A stretch of 64,000 bases of DNA, from positions 103,003-167,002 of the IMG/VR virus record IMGVR_UViG_3300005512_005684; one strand, written 5' to 3'. This DNA is from a virus (taxonomy: Duplodnaviria > Heunggongvirae > Uroviricota > Caudoviricetes). Below are positions 66 through 55,722 of the stretch, one piece after another (positions within the stretch are counted from its first letter, which is position 1; each line of letters starts with the position of its first letter). The notes beneath the pieces are model-generated. The model was not told the origin of the DNA. It saw nothing but the letters and a program-made list of their open reading frames with translations, and made no database searches. A program made the position numbers and the translations under genes.

Positions 66-788
66 ATGGCAAACTTGGATGAACTGAAACACTTCGAGCG
101 AGTCTTTCTCGCGGAGAAAATGCGTCTGGCGTTTGTTCTTAACTGCGCCAAGACCCCGCTGGATGAAGCTCGTGCGTACGCAGAGGAAGTCTTTGCGAAG
201 GCGGGCAAGAAACTGGAAGAGGAACTTCCAAACTTTAGTCAAAACTACCAGGCTTTGCAGAAGAAGTGCGCGCAAGCTCTTGATGTGCCGCGTATTGACA
301 TGCCGGTGATAGAACCGACAGACATGAAGAAGTTTCAGGATGACTTGAAGAAAGGAGCCGTGGACATCTTCGCACCTTACGCGAGGGGTAAGCTCCAGCT
401 TCCGAAGTCCATGAGCAAGAAAGAGGGAGAACAGTGGATCACTCTTGGTTTCTCGGATGGTGAAAAGAAAGACGACAAGGTTCGGGGTAAGTTGACGAGA
501 TTCCCGGTGGACACTCTCAAGCCTACTCAGTCACAAATCTGGCTGGAGAACATGATCCCGAAGATGGTGAAGTTTGGTACGCCTGGACCCGGCTCGCCGC
601 TCCTGAATACGACAGTGATTGTGTCGAGGGAAGGCTTCATTCTCGACGGTCACCACCGCTTTGGCCAAGCTATGCTTGCCGATCCGAGTCTGAAAATGAG
701 AGCGTTGTATGTTCCGCTTTCGATCAAGTTGCTCCTGAAGGTCGGGCGGTCGTACGGTGAGGCTCTCGGCAATACAGCTAAGGAATAG
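66..788 (+). CDS. ParB/Srx-fold nuclease-like domain protein with class-1 N-terminal leader (MANLDELKHFER)
   Basis: AAGGAGA RBS upstream of ATG. C-terminal LKPTQ...ILDGHHRF resembles the ParB N-terminal/sulfiredoxin fold signature. N-terminal motif shared with 7 other proteins. Confidence 0.45.
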   Translation: MANLDELKHFERVFLAEKMRLAFVLNCAKTPLDEARAYAEEVFAKAGKKLEEELPNFSQNYQALQKKCAQALDVPRIDMPVIEPTDMKKFQDDLKKGAVDIFAPYARGKLQLPKSMSKKEGEQWITLGFSDGEKKDDKVRGKLTRFPVDTLKPTQSQIWLENMIPKMVKFGTPGPGSPLLNTTVIVSREGFILDGHHRFGQAMLADPSLKMRALYVPLSIKLLLKVGRSYGEALGNTAKE

Positions 789-799
789 GAGACGGCCTA

Positions 800-2470
800 G
801 TGGAACACCGAAGGCGAATTGCAGCAATTGCCGGTCGGGTTGCTGCTAAGTCTTACTATCACGGTGCTAGTCGTGAGAGTGCGGACTACCTACTCGCACA
901 CGGCTTTGGTACTGTGAAGCGGTTTGAAGGTATGGAGTCCGGAGTGTCGGAAGAATACAGACGCTTTACTTACCTTGCAAAAACGAAGGATGCCGCGGAG
1001 TTCTATGCTGGTGGTAACTTTCGGTTTAAGGAAGGGGTGGTGTTGCGGGTTAGGTTGAACGGACGAGTCTTGAACTTGAAGTATCGTGGGGAAAAGTACG
1101 GGGCTATGATGGCCGCTGGAAGAGAGCTAGGTCTTGATGTTGATGCTGACAACCCACGTGGAATGGTTCCTACGAAGCAGATTGTAAATAAGTTGAAACA
1201 GGAGGGATATTCGGCGATTGAGTTTCACGACAGTTCCAGTGGTTACCGAGCCGTGCTTGTGATCGAACCTGGGAAAATCGAGGTGCAAGGGGAAGTGAAA
1301 AAGAGAACTGCAAGGGTGCATTCTATCGCGAGGAAGATTGTGGCTACCACGTTGCCAACGGGGACGGAACTCGGTGTCCCTTCCCCGACAGAGGCTTTTG
1401 ATCGAGACCTTGCGAACCTCCAGGCGGCTCGTGAAGCCGGTGAGGTGTGGAATGCTGACTTCAAAGAGTGGAAGCGGCGGATGGATACTGGTTTCGATAA
1501 GGCAATCCATGAGGTGACGTGGAAGGCAATCCAACGGTTCAAGCAGGAGAATGACCGGGACATGATCCGTATGCAGAAATACAACGAAGCATACGAGTAC
1601 GGTTCGATGTCGTTTGTGAAGGATTCTGCGAGTCTCCTGAAAAAGCTGGCGAAGACGGCCAAGAAACGTCAGCCGGACACGATTGTCGAGGAACACTTGA
1701 CGCTCTTGGAGAACGCCCTGAAGCAATGGCTTCCGATCCACGAGTTGCTCCAGGACTTGAAGCCGATGATCAAGAAAGGACGGCGGAATGTCGGTGAGGG
1801 TAAGCCAGTGTACCAACCGCCGCCTGCGAGAGCGGTGGATTTGACAAAGGTGAGAACAGTTCTGGAGGAAGTTGTCAATGACGCGCGTGCGCGCTACGTC
1901 ACGCGGATACGCGAATGGCTCTACAGTGGAGTCGAGAGATACTTCGATAAACTGAAAGAGGAAACGGAAGATACTGAAGGTCGAGCGATCATGCTCAAAC
2001 ACTCACCGCGGCGTCTTATGAGAGACGGAGCCGAGTTCCTCTATGGCGATATGATCGAGTTCGACCGTTCGCTGGAGACCTTCGTGTTGAAGGGAAACCA
2101 CCCGCAGCTTGCCCAGGAGATTGCCGAGCGTGAAGCCGATGCGATCAGGGAACAGTTCTTGACCAAGAACATGGCGAAGATGACTTCCTTGATCGGTGAG
2201 AAAGGTGTGGCGGTGGACAAGGCCGTGGTAACTTCGGGTGAGTTCAACGCGTGGTCCTTCGAGGGAGAGATTCGGGTGACCTTCGATGACGATACGGCGT
2301 TCACGGTGCGAAACAAAATCGTGACGAGTGTGTCCAACAGGGGGAATAGGTTCAATCGTTTCCCGACGACATTTCATGATGTCAAGTTCCCGGATGGGTC
2401 GGTACAACGGATGCGCTCGGAAAAGCAAATGAACGAAGAGTGGGTGAAAGCCGGAAAGGAGTTGCAGTGA
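800..2470 (+). CDS. 556-aa hypothetical protein; class-2 leader (RIAAIAGRVA) followed by divergent ART-like SYYHGAS motif
   Basis: Long ORF, GTG start after AGGAGA. N-terminal RIAAIAGRVAAKSYYHGASRES parallels the leader+HG[ST] arrangement of the clearer ART paralogs. Confidence 0.35.
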   Translation: MEHRRRIAAIAGRVAAKSYYHGASRESADYLLAHGFGTVKRFEGMESGVSEEYRRFTYLAKTKDAAEFYAGGNFRFKEGVVLRVRLNGRVLNLKYRGEKYGAMMAAGRELGLDVDADNPRGMVPTKQIVNKLKQEGYSAIEFHDSSSGYRAVLVIEPGKIEVQGEVKKRTARVHSIARKIVATTLPTGTELGVPSPTEAFDRDLANLQAAREAGEVWNADFKEWKRRMDTGFDKAIHEVTWKAIQRFKQENDRDMIRMQKYNEAYEYGSMSFVKDSASLLKKLAKTAKKRQPDTIVEEHLTLLENALKQWLPIHELLQDLKPMIKKGRRNVGEGKPVYQPPPARAVDLTKVRTVLEEVVNDARARYVTRIREWLYSGVERYFDKLKEETEDTEGRAIMLKHSPRRLMRDGAEFLYGDMIEFDRSLETFVLKGNHPQLAQEIAEREADAIREQFLTKNMAKMTSLIGEKGVAVDKAVVTSGEFNAWSFEGEIRVTFDDDTAFTVRNKIVTSVSNRGNRFNRFPTTFHDVKFPDGSVQRMRSEKQMNEEWVKAGKELQ

Positions 2471-53920: not shown

Positions 53921-54014
53921 GTGGGGTGCTAAGGGTGTAGATGAAGACTAATTGATTGCACACATTTCGAGGTCGGATAGGACGAATTCCAGGACGCAAC
54001 CAGGAGACGGAGCA

Positions 54015-55406
54015 ATGTCTCTAGTAGCCTACCATCGAAAGCGTAGAGCAAGTAAGACAGACAAGAACGCTGAGACCAACAAGTGCGCGTGTGGCGCACC
54101 CATCGCGTGTGAAGAGACCGCGTGTAAGGCTTGCATGACGGCCACGAAAGTGTGCAAGGCGTGTGAGAAAGAGTTTGTCGGTGACGGGACAGTATGTGAC
54201 GCTTGCACGAAGGTTTCTTCCAAGGCGGTCAAGGCCGCTCGTACTCTCATTGCGAAGCGACACGAGATTGCTTTCACCGCGGCGTTCGACAAGGGCGAGT
54301 ACTTCGACGACGTGAAGGATCAATCGTGGTTCGTGGAAAAGGTCGCGCGTCGGGTCGAGGACCTGATGCGTAAGGCTGATATGGACGATCCAGACGCGGA
54401 TGACCTTTACGAGTGGGTTCAAAACGATTCCGATCTGTACAGACAGCAACATCTTCCGTGCAAAAAGAACCTTGCCAAGAAAAAGCACAATGGGACGTAT
54501 GATTCTGACAAGGCCGTAAAGCTCATGGAGCATCTTGCGGACTCTGGAGCGAAGAGTTACTGCAAGCAACTGGACGTTGGCGGAAGACCGTGGCACAAGG
54601 TGTTTCCGAAGAAAGTGCGTACGGAAGCGGCCAAGATGCTTCGCGACAACTTCGAGAACCAGTGGGGTAACGAAGAGTACGACTTCATGAAGCACTCGAA
54701 AGAGGCGGCGGCTCGTATGGCCGCTACCATTCGGGAGAACTCCGGGCCGTACACGGTGGACATTGACGTGGTGAAGGAACACGACTCGATTCCCGCGTAC
54801 GTGAAGCTCGTCGAGAAAGAGGTCAAGGATGGTAAGGGTCTGGTGGATGTGACGACCGTTACAGGGAATACGGCGTCTATCTTTTCTCACGGCTCTAATC
54901 CGGTAAGACGGATGCTCGGTGCGATTAGCGTGCCCGTCGATGCACTCAAGCCCGCCGCCCGAGCGAGGAAAGCCAAGAGTCTTTCTCCGGCGCAGACTGC
55001 GTACCGGGAGTTCTTCCAGAGTATGCTCAAAGACGAGGGAGTGAGTTCACCGGCGCAGCTTGAAGACAAGTCGGCGTTCTTCAAGAGAGTCAAGACCGAG
55101 TGGGCGAAACAAAAGAAAGCCTCGGTAAGACAGAAAGTCGAAGACCCGTCCGTGCTCAAGATCAGAGTAGCGCGCGACGAGGCTTTGGAGTTGCTGGATT
55201 ATCACGAAGGAATGGATAGCAACGTGTGTCTCCTGGGCACACGGAACTATGCCGGAGAACCGGTGCCCGTTGACATTGCCGCAAGCGCACTCCGCGAGTT
55301 GAAGGCTTCCCTTCGACGGTGTGAGGACACTGATCACTGCGCCGGACTCAGGAGGGTCATCGGCTATGTCAAGCAGGCCGCACAGAAAGCATCGAGTAGC
55401 CAGTAG
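54015..55406 (+). CDS. 463-aa protein with class-3 leader (MSLVAYHRKRR) and N-terminal Cys-rich segment
   Basis: AGGAGACGGAGCA RBS. CACGAPIACEETACKACMTATKVCKACEKEFVGDGTVCDAC. Confidence 0.35.
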   Translation: MSLVAYHRKRRASKTDKNAETNKCACGAPIACEETACKACMTATKVCKACEKEFVGDGTVCDACTKVSSKAVKAARTLIAKRHEIAFTAAFDKGEYFDDVKDQSWFVEKVARRVEDLMRKADMDDPDADDLYEWVQNDSDLYRQQHLPCKKNLAKKKHNGTYDSDKAVKLMEHLADSGAKSYCKQLDVGGRPWHKVFPKKVRTEAAKMLRDNFENQWGNEEYDFMKHSKEAAARMAATIRENSGPYTVDIDVVKEHDSIPAYVKLVEKEVKDGKGLVDVTTVTGNTASIFSHGSNPVRRMLGAISVPVDALKPAARARKAKSLSPAQTAYREFFQSMLKDEGVSSPAQLEDKSAFFKRVKTEWAKQKKASVRQKVEDPSVLKIRVARDEALELLDYHEGMDSNVCLLGTRNYAGEPVPVDIAASALRELKASLRRCEDTDHCAGLRRVIGYVKQAAQKASSSQ

Positions 55407-55722
55407 CGTTGTCGAGTTCCATCGGCTGCGTCTGGCGGATCGACCGAAGGATTATCTTGGAGAGTACCTAGACGCTCAGAGGCAATCTGAGGAACTAGAC
55501 GGGGCGATCATGCGCGAAGAGTTCAAGCCTTGGACTTCGCGAATGATCGCCCTTTTACGTGGTACGACAAGGTACTCGCCATACTTCGGTGACGTGGTGA
55601 AAGCTGCGGAGCATGGCCTGAACATGATGCGAATGAATCAGGGGTCGGTGAAGGAACCGGAGAAACTCGTGAAGCAGATCGAACGTCTGGAACAGATGGT
55701 TGCCAAGACAGTGGGAGAGTGA
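55366..55722 (+). CDS. hypothetical protein with class-3-like leader (HRKHRVASSVVEFHR)
   Basis: AGGAGGG RBS; 41-nt overlap with upstream gene. Confidence 0.3.
   Translation: MSSRPHRKHRVASSVVEFHRLRLADRPKDYLGEYLDAQRQSEELDGAIMREEFKPWTSRMIALLRGTTRYSPYFGDVVKAAEHGLNMMRMNQGSVKEPEKLVKQIERLEQMVAKTVGE

Follow-up and report, generated by a model that had tools for sequence, protein, structure and literature searches.

Three classes of short conserved peptides on diverse proteins of an uncultivated phage: candidate docking tags for host-takeover effectors

In this study, we analyzed a stretch of 64,000 nucleotides (hereafter the window) from the IMG/VR virus record IMGVR_UViG_3300005512_005684 (Caudoviricetes; positions 103,003 to 167,002), and found that 23-26 of its genes, as well as two genes located just upstream, are headed by one of three classes of short conserved peptides. 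These peptides are position-specific and modular, are under selection as peptides, and have been kept in a distant relative on different cargo proteins. It is quite likely that they dock their cargo to some common partner, and a tentative further reading is that they are modular tags for host-takeover effectors, whose destination would be virion packaging or co-injection. Both the binding of a partner and the place of that partner in the virion are what we infer from the sequences described below.

Occurrence of the three peptide classes

Class 1 (consensus MAxxxELxx[FYW]E[RK]xhhA) is an N-terminal peptide of 16 residues, class 2 (R[IV]xx[IV]AxR[VL]) has a core of 13 residues, and class 3 (M[AS]KSIV[AS][YH]HR) is a basic N-terminal peptide of 10-12 residues. 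An initial annotation of the window had listed carriers of each class, and all of the gene starts and N-terminal sequences it gave were reproduced here (genes are named by the window position at which they begin, such as g66). One small hidden Markov model (HMM) was used for each class to scan all six-frame open reading frames (ORFs) of the window and its flanks, the reachable sequence being the window plus ~16 kb of flanks (~80 kb in total). All eight genes assigned to class 1 were recovered with scores of 20.2-27.7 bits, while the best non-member reached 5.1 bits; the strict class 1 pattern had nine in-frame matches on the + strand, eight of them at residue 6. For class 2, ten of the 14 proposed genes (g800, g4004, g4971, g5801, g11907, g33450, g44361, g45685, g51928 and g53501) were strong (9.5-20.3 bits) and g50345 was moderate (7.6 bits), whereas g3255 and g12518 turned out to be weak and g13434 had no convincing N-terminal copy; the best non-member scored 4.9 bits and was on the wrong strand. 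Among the five genes proposed for class 3, the assignment held for g6599, g9292 and g9670 (13.6-16.7 bits) and for g54015 (12.6 bits), but g55366 was weak (6.5 bits), and the best non-member, again on the wrong strand, scored 8.9 bits. When 326 kb of other viral DNA was scanned, the best scores were 12.7 (class 1), 10.9 (class 2) and 4.9 bits (class 3), the top class 1 and class 2 matches in this control having been pre-selected by the search pattern itself. The search for other carriers revealed the two genes just upstream of the window (L002:4560 and L002:5086) and an internal class 2 copy 6 kb downstream of it (in the gene at L004:8013-10025).

In a model-free test, 81 pairs of N-terminal gene segments exceeded the 99th percentile of similarity among internal segments, compared with 37 internal pairs, and the maximum pairwise similarity was 45 for N-terminal and 30 for internal segments. 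Pairwise identity at codon positions 1, 2 and 3 was 0.53, 0.57 and 0.30 for class 1, 0.46, 0.58 and 0.33 for class 2, and 0.78, 0.94 and 0.54 for the tighter class 3, against a background of 0.27, 0.25 and 0.26. Since the first two codon positions are conserved and the third is near background in classes 1 and 2, selection acts on the peptide, as had been proposed from the differing codons. A nucleotide-level cause, such as a conserved translation start region or a recombination site, was rejected for these two classes (third-position identity of 0.30-0.33 vs 0.26). For class 3, the third-position identity is 0.54 and 5-7 of 10 codons are identical to those of a related contig (L003, see below), so that a minor nucleotide-level or codon-bias contribution is conceivable. 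A Sec or Tat signal peptide was rejected as well, as direct reading of the leaders revealed no hydrophobic h-region.

The three classes differ in their physical properties. Class 1 is moderately amphipathic and near neutral (hydrophobic moment at the 84th percentile), and class 3 is basic and not helix-amphipathic; both are strictly N-terminal. Class 2, with a hydrophobic moment at the 97th percentile and a net charge of ~+2.8, is a strongly amphipathic and basic helix, and its small residues (I-A) are invariant, as would be expected if a helix docks in a groove. Its N-terminal copies lie mostly within residues 4-26. However, the idea that class 2 is purely an N-terminal leader had to be abandoned, as the HMM scan also located copies inside proteins, at domain junctions, and at C-termini.

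Exchange of the peptides among cargo proteins and their conservation in a relative

The carriers, which are mostly solo proteins of 100-556 aa, had been described as unrelated apart from their leaders. Most of them do have different folds, the clearly different ones being a class I S-adenosylmethionine (SAM) methyltransferase, a ParB/Srx DGHHR protein, an HELVH zincin and a PolyA_pol/HD enzyme. On the other hand, BLASTP among the carriers revealed one trio of paralogs (g4004, g7141 and g45685), and a weak signal of the PARP or ADP-ribosyltransferase (ART) type is present in at least four carriers, with weak PARP-type matches in four and an ART-PolyVal match above the cut-off in g48956 (E=6e-9). 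Several cargos are thus predicted to be distantly related ART-superfamily domains, the profile-level similarity among the ART-like carriers being marginal. The previously named cargo types were all found, i.e., a methyltransferase in g46674, a ParB-like protein in g66, an ART in g48956 and an HExxH protein in g42646, the ParB/Srx motif of g66 and the HExxH motif of g42646 with its weak PhageMetallopep match being suggestive only. PDB sequence searches with g66 and g48956 gave nothing meaningful.

Within the paralog trio, the same domain is headed by class 2 in g4004 and g45685 and by class 1 in g7141. Because two classes occur on one paralog family, the leaders are exchangeable modules. They are also kept upon fusion: both two-module proteins, g800 (tag, ART-like module, tag, domain) and the product of L004:8013, retain a tag ahead of each module, which favors a targeting role. 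The latter protein (670 aa) consists of an ART-like YLYHVT...GLVPN module, an acidic linker, the class 2 copy SRVMRIASRVLIAG (residues 182-196) and a PolyA_pol/HD nucleotidyltransferase, and the core of this copy, RVMRIASRV, is identical to that of g53501. The pairing of an ADP-ribosyltransferase-like module with a CCA-adding-type tRNA nucleotidyltransferase is in itself unusual.

The back-translated class 3 leader pattern had one match in metagenome contigs, on a contig from a different sample (L003), 10 kb of which were analyzed. The matched strand encodes proteins beginning with MAKSIVAYHRQR and MKRDTRMIKIATKVV, as well as a PARP-like 'M...EAIALRVLVA..LYHGT' protein. L003 carries MAKSIVAYHR (class 3) together with class 2 helices; its leaders and the leaders in the window share 61-83% identity, and its cargo is unrelated. 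The sole protein with detectable homology between the window and L003 is g48615 (36% identity). In this comparison, the tags outlast their cargo. The class 3 DNA pattern had no matches in IMG/VR and none in GTDB genomes, and the class 1 and class 2 patterns had single, chance-like matches only in IMG/VR. Word-index protein searches returned only the query, one paralog and one homolog, and a concatenated query of L003 proteins returned nothing.

Possible function as docking tags

Peptide-level selection, modular exchange, retention in fusions, the position tolerance of class 2 and conservation in a cargo-swapped relative are the reasons why we favor a docking function. Each tag would attach a host-takeover or anti-defense enzyme to a shared phage-encoded partner, and there would be one docking site or partner for each of the three classes. 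The destination would be the interior of the assembling capsid or the ejection apparatus, and ~30 separate effectors would be delivered with the DNA, the tagged solo proteins replacing the giant 'polyvalent' chains of the same domain kinds in other large phages.

Virion packaging or co-injection would be the most likely destination because of the polyvalent-type cargo, the precedent of T4 Alt and the tail-fiber neighborhood in L003. In phage T4, the capsid-targeting sequence (CTS) is an N-terminal propeptide of 10-20 residues on the diverse internal proteins (IPI-III) and on Alt, which directs these proteins into the scaffolding core and is cleaved off by the prohead protease gp21 (PMC3012670, PMC5694885), and Alt, an ART, is packaged via its CTS (PMC5512222, PMC5694885). 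Polyvalent proteins (Iyer et al., 2017), which have 2-15 effector domains per polypeptide, are predicted to be packaged and injected (PMC5512222). In L003, the homolog of g48615 directly precedes a DUF2793/collagen tail-fiber gene, and leader genes lie within 3 kb; an adjacent 2H-SAK phosphoesterase (E=1.4e-7, above the cut-off) has a weak class-2-like C-terminus. The window gene g48615 itself (48615..48953, + strand) encodes a leaderless protein of 112 aa that is predicted to be an all-beta sandwich (model pLDDT of 69, no significant fold match), and it is possibly a partner or a structural protein. It is also in favor of a common destination that the carriers are confined to operon-like arrays, the exception being g33450, which stands alone in a ~28 kb stretch of nucleotide-metabolism and accessory genes between arrays.

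The initial annotation had read the leaders as targeting signals by analogy with the T4 CTS. Modularity, selection on the peptide and effector-type cargo make this analogy reasonable at the level of mechanism, but the molecular hallmarks of the CTS were not found. The suggestion of a cleaved propeptide found no support, as neither [LI]xE nor [SAG]xE stands at a consistent place at or after any leader or is enriched there: within residues 9-35, [LI]xE is present in 5 of 26 carriers and 12 of 54 non-carriers, and [SAG]xE in 9 of 26 and 22 of 54, respectively. The h-x-E near residue 6 of class 1, which had been pointed out as a potential site, is present in only half of the members, and after a cut at this point the mature protein would retain LxxFER, the best conserved portion. 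A search for a prohead protease gene in the window and its flanks also found none. Cleavage by a protease of other specificity is possible. Class 2, because of its internal and C-terminal copies, suits a docking helix better than an N-terminal propeptide, and we lean toward the view that it stays attached. A docking helix for a common partner, which had been mentioned as an alternative, is at least as well supported as a cleaved propeptide.

Several further observations weigh against delivery by the virion. No cleavage motif of the T4 type or of the phiKZ type (A/S/G-x-E in SPN3US and phiKZ; PMC5694885) accompanies any leader class. No capsid, portal, scaffold or prohead protease gene was recognizable in the ~80 kb by Pfam, PHROGs and NCBIfam, and because no structural gene was recognizable within the window and its flanks, no docking partner was identified. 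Neighbors of the arrays in the window are of the accessory or early type (sigma factor, MerR, glycosyltransferases, SNase and NT5C), without structural genes. Class 2 copies are also found internally (g800 and L004:8013) and at C-termini (g13434 and the membrane protein g44949), and only 3-8 residues separate the tag from the first beta-strand in the ART-like carriers. A homolog of the g66 nuclease domain in a cultured phage is a short solo protein in a replication-gene region. Finally, in giant homologs of g4004, short elements similar in style to the leaders sit directly before the internal ART-like domain and almost nowhere else.

Alternative explanations

Several of these observations would also fit uncleaved docking helices for an intracellular hub (a complex, condensate or compartment), with a partner such as g44949 or g48615, in the manner of bacterial microcompartment (BMC) encapsulation. 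Class 2 is strongly amphipathic and occurs at the N-terminus, internally and at the C-terminus, in line with the definition of BMC encapsulation peptides (PMC4594438), a cleavage motif is lacking, the window arrays lie amid non-structural genes, and the membrane protein g44949 carries a class 2 helix. However, no BMC shell or encapsulin gene was found in the window, and none of the chimallin type appeared in general scans, which included no dedicated search; the L003 carriers adjoin a tail-fiber gene, the cargo types have been linked to virion delivery, and the linkers are often of 3-8 residues, unlike those of most encapsulation peptides (PMC4594438). On balance, such a hub appears somewhat unlikely.

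An extension of the docking proposal is a three-address sorting code, in which three receptors would route the ~30 effectors to distinct destinations or delivery waves by linear, position-independent signals that are kept on fusion. The addresses could be, for example, the capsid interior, an ejection channel or membrane reached via the class 2-tagged TMEM65-like protein g44949, and a nucleic-acid-bound pool. We regard this code as unlikely; if true, it would have no described phage counterpart and would represent a stage in evolution that lies between solo effectors and giant polyvalent proteins.

The leaders might, in contrast, have no targeting role and be remnants of a helix of an ancestral ART-like domain, spread by duplication and 3' cassette replacement. 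This explanation draws on the family of g4004 (window 4004-4981, 7141-8208 and 45685-46671), which has 947 homologs in an exhaustive HMMER search (E of 1e-3 or better). Among the top matches, about two thirds are stand-alone proteins of ~300-340 aa, whereas in one third the domain is part of a longer protein of up to 4,226 aa; many members are embedded in giant proteins of 1,000-4,226 aa. The family profile aligns to Tpt1/KptA (E=2e-4) and PARP1 over only the first strand-helix of the NAD-binding ART lobe; there was no Pfam family above the cut-off, and the AF2 model of g4004 (4-sequence alignment; pLDDT of 60, and <50 over the ART region) was too poor for use. We predict that the family (YHGT..NL.SILSQGLIPxPK) is a Tpt1/PARP-like domain of the ART superfamily. 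It was not found in cultured phages, plasmids and 185,000 species genomes (GTDB), and occurs in metagenomic and huge-phage sequences, including IMG/VR contigs of 21-467 kb. On these contigs it is often part of a giant protein with additional domains of the NUDIX or another ART-like type, and some such giants are near collagen-like or fiber-like genes, the virion identity of these neighbors being unconfirmed.

In every stand-alone homolog, the YHGT strand is preceded by a short element at the N-terminus, of which recurrent types include MNWY..., ...ERYGGA..E, M.F.EWL..E, amphipathic ...KIAKA., ...ERRQ..AK.G. and KTAAP. Some of these elements are class 2-like, such as those of P0052 (RLLRIAAKIEKV) and P0003 (LRRLASV), and others are class 1-like; throughout the 947-member family the element precedes the YHGT strand and stays with the domain in the giants. 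In addition, many class 2 carriers of the window have an hYH[GAT][TS] strand immediately behind the helix. Because the element travels with the ART-like domain, a helix intrinsic to that domain could be the origin of some of the signal in classes 1 and 2. However, the same classes head methyltransferase, ParB-like and PolyA_pol/HD folds, classes 1 and 2 replace each other within one paralog family, the 947 members include no equivalent of class 3, and conservation between the window and L003 is higher in the leaders than in the cargo. Moreover, synonymous sites are randomized while the peptide is kept, which indicates purifying selection on the peptide in every context. A mere domain remnant is therefore improbable as the whole explanation, and what appears to be particular to the lineage of the window is that the same peptide classes head unrelated domains.

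Two related candidates were tried and rejected. The leaders are not a universal junction motif of polyvalent proteins, as the ERYGG and KTAAP elements in 37 giant homologs occur almost only before one ART-like domain. Shared M.F..W[LI] N-termini in a 430 kb huge phage (L007) had best scores of 14-16 vs a threshold of 22. Separately, a conserved module was noticed in several GC-rich phage contigs of IMG/VR (L008, L009, L012 and L014; ~6,100-16,000 in each). Genes for small paralogs (~141-161 aa; MSFLTERK...DVPIALP...) and for giant proteins (900-1,340 aa) alternate in it, and one of the giants has an ART-like domain (and a NUDIX domain in L009, the one scanned); a further ART-like protein, KRGLLLYHGTSS, is encoded downstream.

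For class 2, a generic membrane-binding amphipathic helix of the MinD/FtsA kind could bring effectors to the host inner membrane, as suggested by its high hydrophobic moment, its charge and its occurrence at either terminus. Its conservation (R-[IV]-x-x-I-A-x-R-V, with a fixed Ala) is tighter than generic helices require, the hydrophobic face consists of small or beta-branched residues without bulky aromatics, the integral membrane protein g44949 carries class 2 too, and classes 1 and 3 would be left unexplained, all of which makes this role very doubtful.

Another possibility is that an enzyme or chaperone recognizes the leaders as tags, as in a leader-guided modification by g2440 that would follow the logic of ribosomally synthesized and post-translationally modified peptides (RiPPs) on whole proteins. 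This gene (2440..3258, + strand; 272 aa) is leaderless, is translationally coupled within the class 2 array, between class 2 genes, and resembles radical-SAM maturases of the SPASM/twitch type. Its matches to SPASM/twitch maturase models are all far below the family cut-offs, however, no RiPP recognition element (RRE) domain was matched in its 272 aa, and tblastn found no homolog of it in the 10 kb of L003, which has leaders; the carriers are enzymes of 100-556 aa rather than precursor peptides, and one enzyme would be insufficient for three classes. There is thus little probability of such a modification. A second, unclassified radical-SAM-like enzyme would be encoded by g30976 (window 30976-31701; 241 aa), whose N-terminal part contains a CxxxCxxC motif canonical for radical-SAM enzymes (CPNECEDC) and which has no match to any Pfam or NCBIfam model.

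Shared degrons or regulatory tags, for example for N-terminal recognition by ClpXP or Lon, are highly improbable: classes 1 and 3 are strictly N-terminal and the start of class 3 presumably bears a loose likeness to N-terminal ClpX recognition motifs, but class 2 has internal and C-terminal copies, three tightly conserved classes kept in a distant relative would be unusual for degrons of host proteases, and library scans of the window and flanks found no adaptor or protease gene.

Organization of the leader-gene arrays

The DNA of the window is also present as three contigs of JGI metagenome 3300001419, which extend it by ~10 kb upstream in all and by 10 kb downstream (window position 66 is L005:10001). 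All long ORFs in the window are on the + strand, the GC content is ~52% and the GC skew is strongly positive. Megablast against deposited phages found no close relative of the window. A 1 kb contig of an independent assembly (L006; contig k141_56137 of ENA ERZ27252100) encodes a protein identical to that of g66, which places this phage in at least one further dataset. Recognizable leaderless genes of the window include the T4 gp30.3 family, RNase H, NUDIX, SNase, NT5C, DnaJ, DNA methyltransferases and glycosyltransferases, which are typical phage accessory functions.

The carrier arrays show tight gene coupling with frequent overlaps of stop and start codons, and have hairpin terminators at their borders. 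Array 1 (66..13811, + strand), whose start at L002:4560 precedes the window by ~1.5 kb, contains 16 tightly coupled genes and is closed by a hairpin terminator (13812-13913); its leaderless genes are g2440 and g10333. Arrays 2 and 3 (42646..55722, + strand) are separated by hairpin terminators at 44153-44360 and 53849-54014, and have as leaderless genes g44949 (TMEM65-like, with a C-terminal class 2 helix), g47843, g48615, g52415 (zinc ribbon) and g52890 (DNA methyltransferase). When intergenic regions were inspected for expression timing, terminators were present and no early or late promoter class was assignable.

All window peptides given below are encoded on the + strand. Class 1 leaders are present in g66 (MANLDELKHFERVFLA, 66..113; 240 aa, with the DGHHR motif near its C-terminus; 25.4 bits), g7141 (MASLQELRHFERFRVA, 7141..7188; 355 aa, the ART-like paralog of g4004 and g45685; 25.3 bits) and g8201 (MANARELREFERMVIA, 8201..8248; 334 aa; 26.1 bits) of array 1. 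In the later arrays, they head g42646 (MASVRELERYEARVRF, 42646..42693; 349 aa, with the HELVH zincin motif and the PhageMetallopep match; 20.2 bits), g46674 (MAKRGDLEQWERELVR, 46674..46721; 255 aa, class I SAM methyltransferase whose domain begins at about residue 90; 26.1 bits), g47444 (MAERSELESYEKKLKR, 47444..47491; 129 aa, basic; 23.5 bits), g48956 (MADRRGLTSFERMVIA, 48956..49003; 253 aa, ART-PolyVal at residues 70-231; 26.4 bits) and g49717 (MANPSELQRFERGMVA, 49717..49764; 208 aa; 27.7 bits).

The class 2 peptides of array 1 begin with the upstream gene at L002:4560 (MNARIEAIAVRVA). The 556-aa protein of g800 has an N-terminal copy (RRIAAIAGRVAAK, 812..850; 9.5 bits) followed by a YYHGAS ART-like strand, and a second copy at residues 171-183 (ARVHSIARKIVAT, 1310..1348; 6.3 bits), between the ART-like module and a C-terminal module of 370 aa. 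Further copies are in g4004 (ARVHRIASKVVTA, 4013..4051; 325 aa, Tpt1/PARP-like; 16.4 bits), g4971 (ERIHEIAIRVALS, 4983..5021; 275 aa; 16.9 bits), g5801 (ERILRIAIRVAKA, 5813..5851; 252 aa, followed by a KLYHAT strand; 15.0 bits) and g11907 (SRIATIARRVAGA, 11916..11954; 198 aa; 14.1 bits). The weak class-2-like peptide of g3255 (SRVHKIVAAVTQA, 3264..3302; 249 aa) was not detected by the class HMM, and that of the very acidic g12518 (KRLMRIAKVLVSS, 12539..12577; 301 aa) scored 2.4 bits. At the end of the array, g13434 has its copy at residues 110-122 of 125 (SRVASIAMRVLSY, 13761..13799; 8.3 bits), the protein ending in RVASIAMRVLSYHLN.

The sole carrier outside the arrays is g33450 (PRVHGIARRLFAS, 33471..33509; 102 aa; 17.5 bits). 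Class 2 peptides of the later arrays are those of g44361 (PRQCVIAKRVVKA, 44373..44411; 194 aa, followed by an FLFHTTS strand; 16.9 bits), g45685 (QRVARIASRLLPP, 45706..45744; 328 aa, paralog of g4004; 15.3 bits), g50345 (a moderate match, LRVAAIADRVRLA, 50378..50416; 528 aa; 7.6 bits), g51928 (RRIFRIASRVRLA, 51946..51984; 182 aa, followed by a VKVYHFT strand; 14.0 bits) and g53501 (GRVMRIASRVMES, 53540..53578; 115 aa; 20.3 bits). The membrane protein encoded by g44949 (window 44949-45704; 251 aa) belongs to the TMEM65 family (Pfam E=2e-26), has at least two hydrophobic transmembrane-like segments, and carries its class 2 helix at the C-terminus (DRIMRIARRIERN, 45648..45686; 7.7 bits), ending in DRIMRIARRIERNVHTGS. 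This helix is encoded across the overlap with g45685, whose own class 2 leader starts 20 nt further in another frame.

Class 3 leaders are found in g6599 (MAKSIVAHHRER, 6599..6634; 180 aa, with a CxxC motif; 16.7 bits), g9292 (MAKSIVAYHREH, 9292..9327; 120 aa; 16.4 bits), g9670 (MSKSIVSYHRAR, 9670..9705; 219 aa, acidic; 13.6 bits) and, just upstream of the window, L002:5086 (MAKSIVAYHR). The short form MSLVAYHRKRR heads g54015 (54015..54047; 463 aa, with a Cys-rich N-terminal region; 12.6 bits), and the weak class-3-like peptide of g55366 (VASSVVEFHRLR, 55396..55431; 118 aa; 6.5 bits) occupies residues 11-22.

Several other features were noticed in this region. An adjoining, overlapping gene pair at window 25904-30965 encodes proteins of 648 aa and 1,042 aa; the former has an N-terminal GHKL/HATPase_c_3 domain and matches a BbrUII/HgiDII restriction-enzyme family far below the cut-off (E=1.6e-16), the latter has no family match, and the pair may be a phage-borne defense or anti-defense module. 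Upstream of the window, a sigma-70-family factor (regions 2 and 4), a DUF1016_N protein and a MerR-type regulator are encoded in this order (L005:536-2080), a few kb upstream of a repeat array and of the first leader operon. Two genes at L005:4870-6162 have glycine-rich motifs and are loosely RAMP-like (unverified). The repeat array (L005:6170-7960, ~3.8-2.0 kb upstream of window position 1) comprises at least 12 tandem units of ~140 nt, each with a GT-rich spacer, a conserved hairpin (TTTACAACACC..TGCGTGTTGTCCC) and an element of ~50 nt that is closed by a 7-bp stem and contains a GGTTCGAnnCC resembling the T-arm of tRNA. ARAGORN found no tRNA in the array and Rfam nothing at E of 0.1 or better; the repeats could be tRNA-like minihelices or a new repeat RNA, and the same phage also encodes a CCA-adding-type enzyme.

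Comparison with known systems

Targeting peptides on phage internal proteins are already known, and the phenomenon is not categorically new. In chimalliviruses, folded-surface patches are recognized by PicA for protein import, and no conserved signal sequence has been reported (PMC11087766). Because that system lacks a linear signal and the peptides here are linear, nuclear import is not a model for them; none of the named phage-nucleus families was present among the window proteins scanned, no search being aimed at chimallin or PicA. RiPP systems differ in having short precursor peptides, whereas the carriers here are full-size enzymes and g2440 has no RRE match.

The many head-packaged proteins of phiKZ- and SPN3US-like phages, including ejection and inner-body proteins, have N-terminal regions that are thought to be prohead-targeting (PMC5694885). 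Most of these propeptides have >100 residues, are on paralog families and end at A/S/G-x-E (PMC5694885), whereas the peptides here have 10-16 residues and non-paralogous cargo and lack such a site. BMC encapsulation peptides and encapsulin cargo-loading peptides are short amphipathic terminal helices of several classes that dock unrelated enzymes to a shell and for which the hydrophobic face is crucial (PMC4594438). With its core of 13 aa, against ~15-20 aa in BMC encapsulation peptides, class 2 fits this description physically. On the other hand, the linkers here are often of 3-8 residues, conservation is much tighter, and classes 1 and 3 are not strongly amphipathic helices; no Pfam match to BMC or EutN-type shell genes was found among the window proteins scanned.

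The T4 CTS is also a short, modular and in principle transferable N-terminal peptide on diverse, fast-evolving anti-defense or host-modifying proteins, including an ADP-ribosyltransferase (PMC3012670, PMC5694885), and classes 1 and 3, strictly N-terminal peptides of 10-16 aa on unrelated cargo, resemble it in this respect. The leaders differ from it in having no motif in common with MKTYQEFIAE, in forming three classes on ~30 carriers vs one class on a handful, in lacking a gp21-type [LI]xE site, in the internal and C-terminal copies of class 2, and in being known here from sequence alone. In the literature searched, we found no description of three orthogonal and tightly conserved classes on ~30 solo effectors, with a position-tolerant class at fusion junctions, in a metagenome-only lineage. 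If these peptides are targeting signals, they mark at once the whole delivered or co-assembled effector set of an uncultivated large phage, and provide a candidate list of anti-defense and host-takeover proteins, most of which have no recognizable function. Short, portable and position-tolerant tags of three orthogonal classes would also lend themselves to the loading of phage particles with foreign proteins, for which the T4 CTS is already in use.

The closest likeness in cargo is to polyvalent proteins, with which the window shares a repertoire of ART-PolyVal, ParB-like nuclease, methyltransferase, zincin peptidase and 2H-SAK (the ART-PolyVal and 2H-SAK families having been defined from polyvalent proteins), and the g4004 family itself occurs inside multidomain proteins of 1,000-4,226 aa. 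With regard to gene context, a fiber gene lies beside the carriers in L003, and there are no structural neighbors in the window. In contrast to polyvalent proteins, the domains here are mostly encoded by separate tagged genes, only g800 and L004:8013 being two-module. If the delivery reading is true, tagged solo proteins would be a second solution for delivering many enzymes together, besides one giant polyvalent chain, and the tag-retaining fusions g800 and L004:8013 suggest how one architecture may turn into the other.

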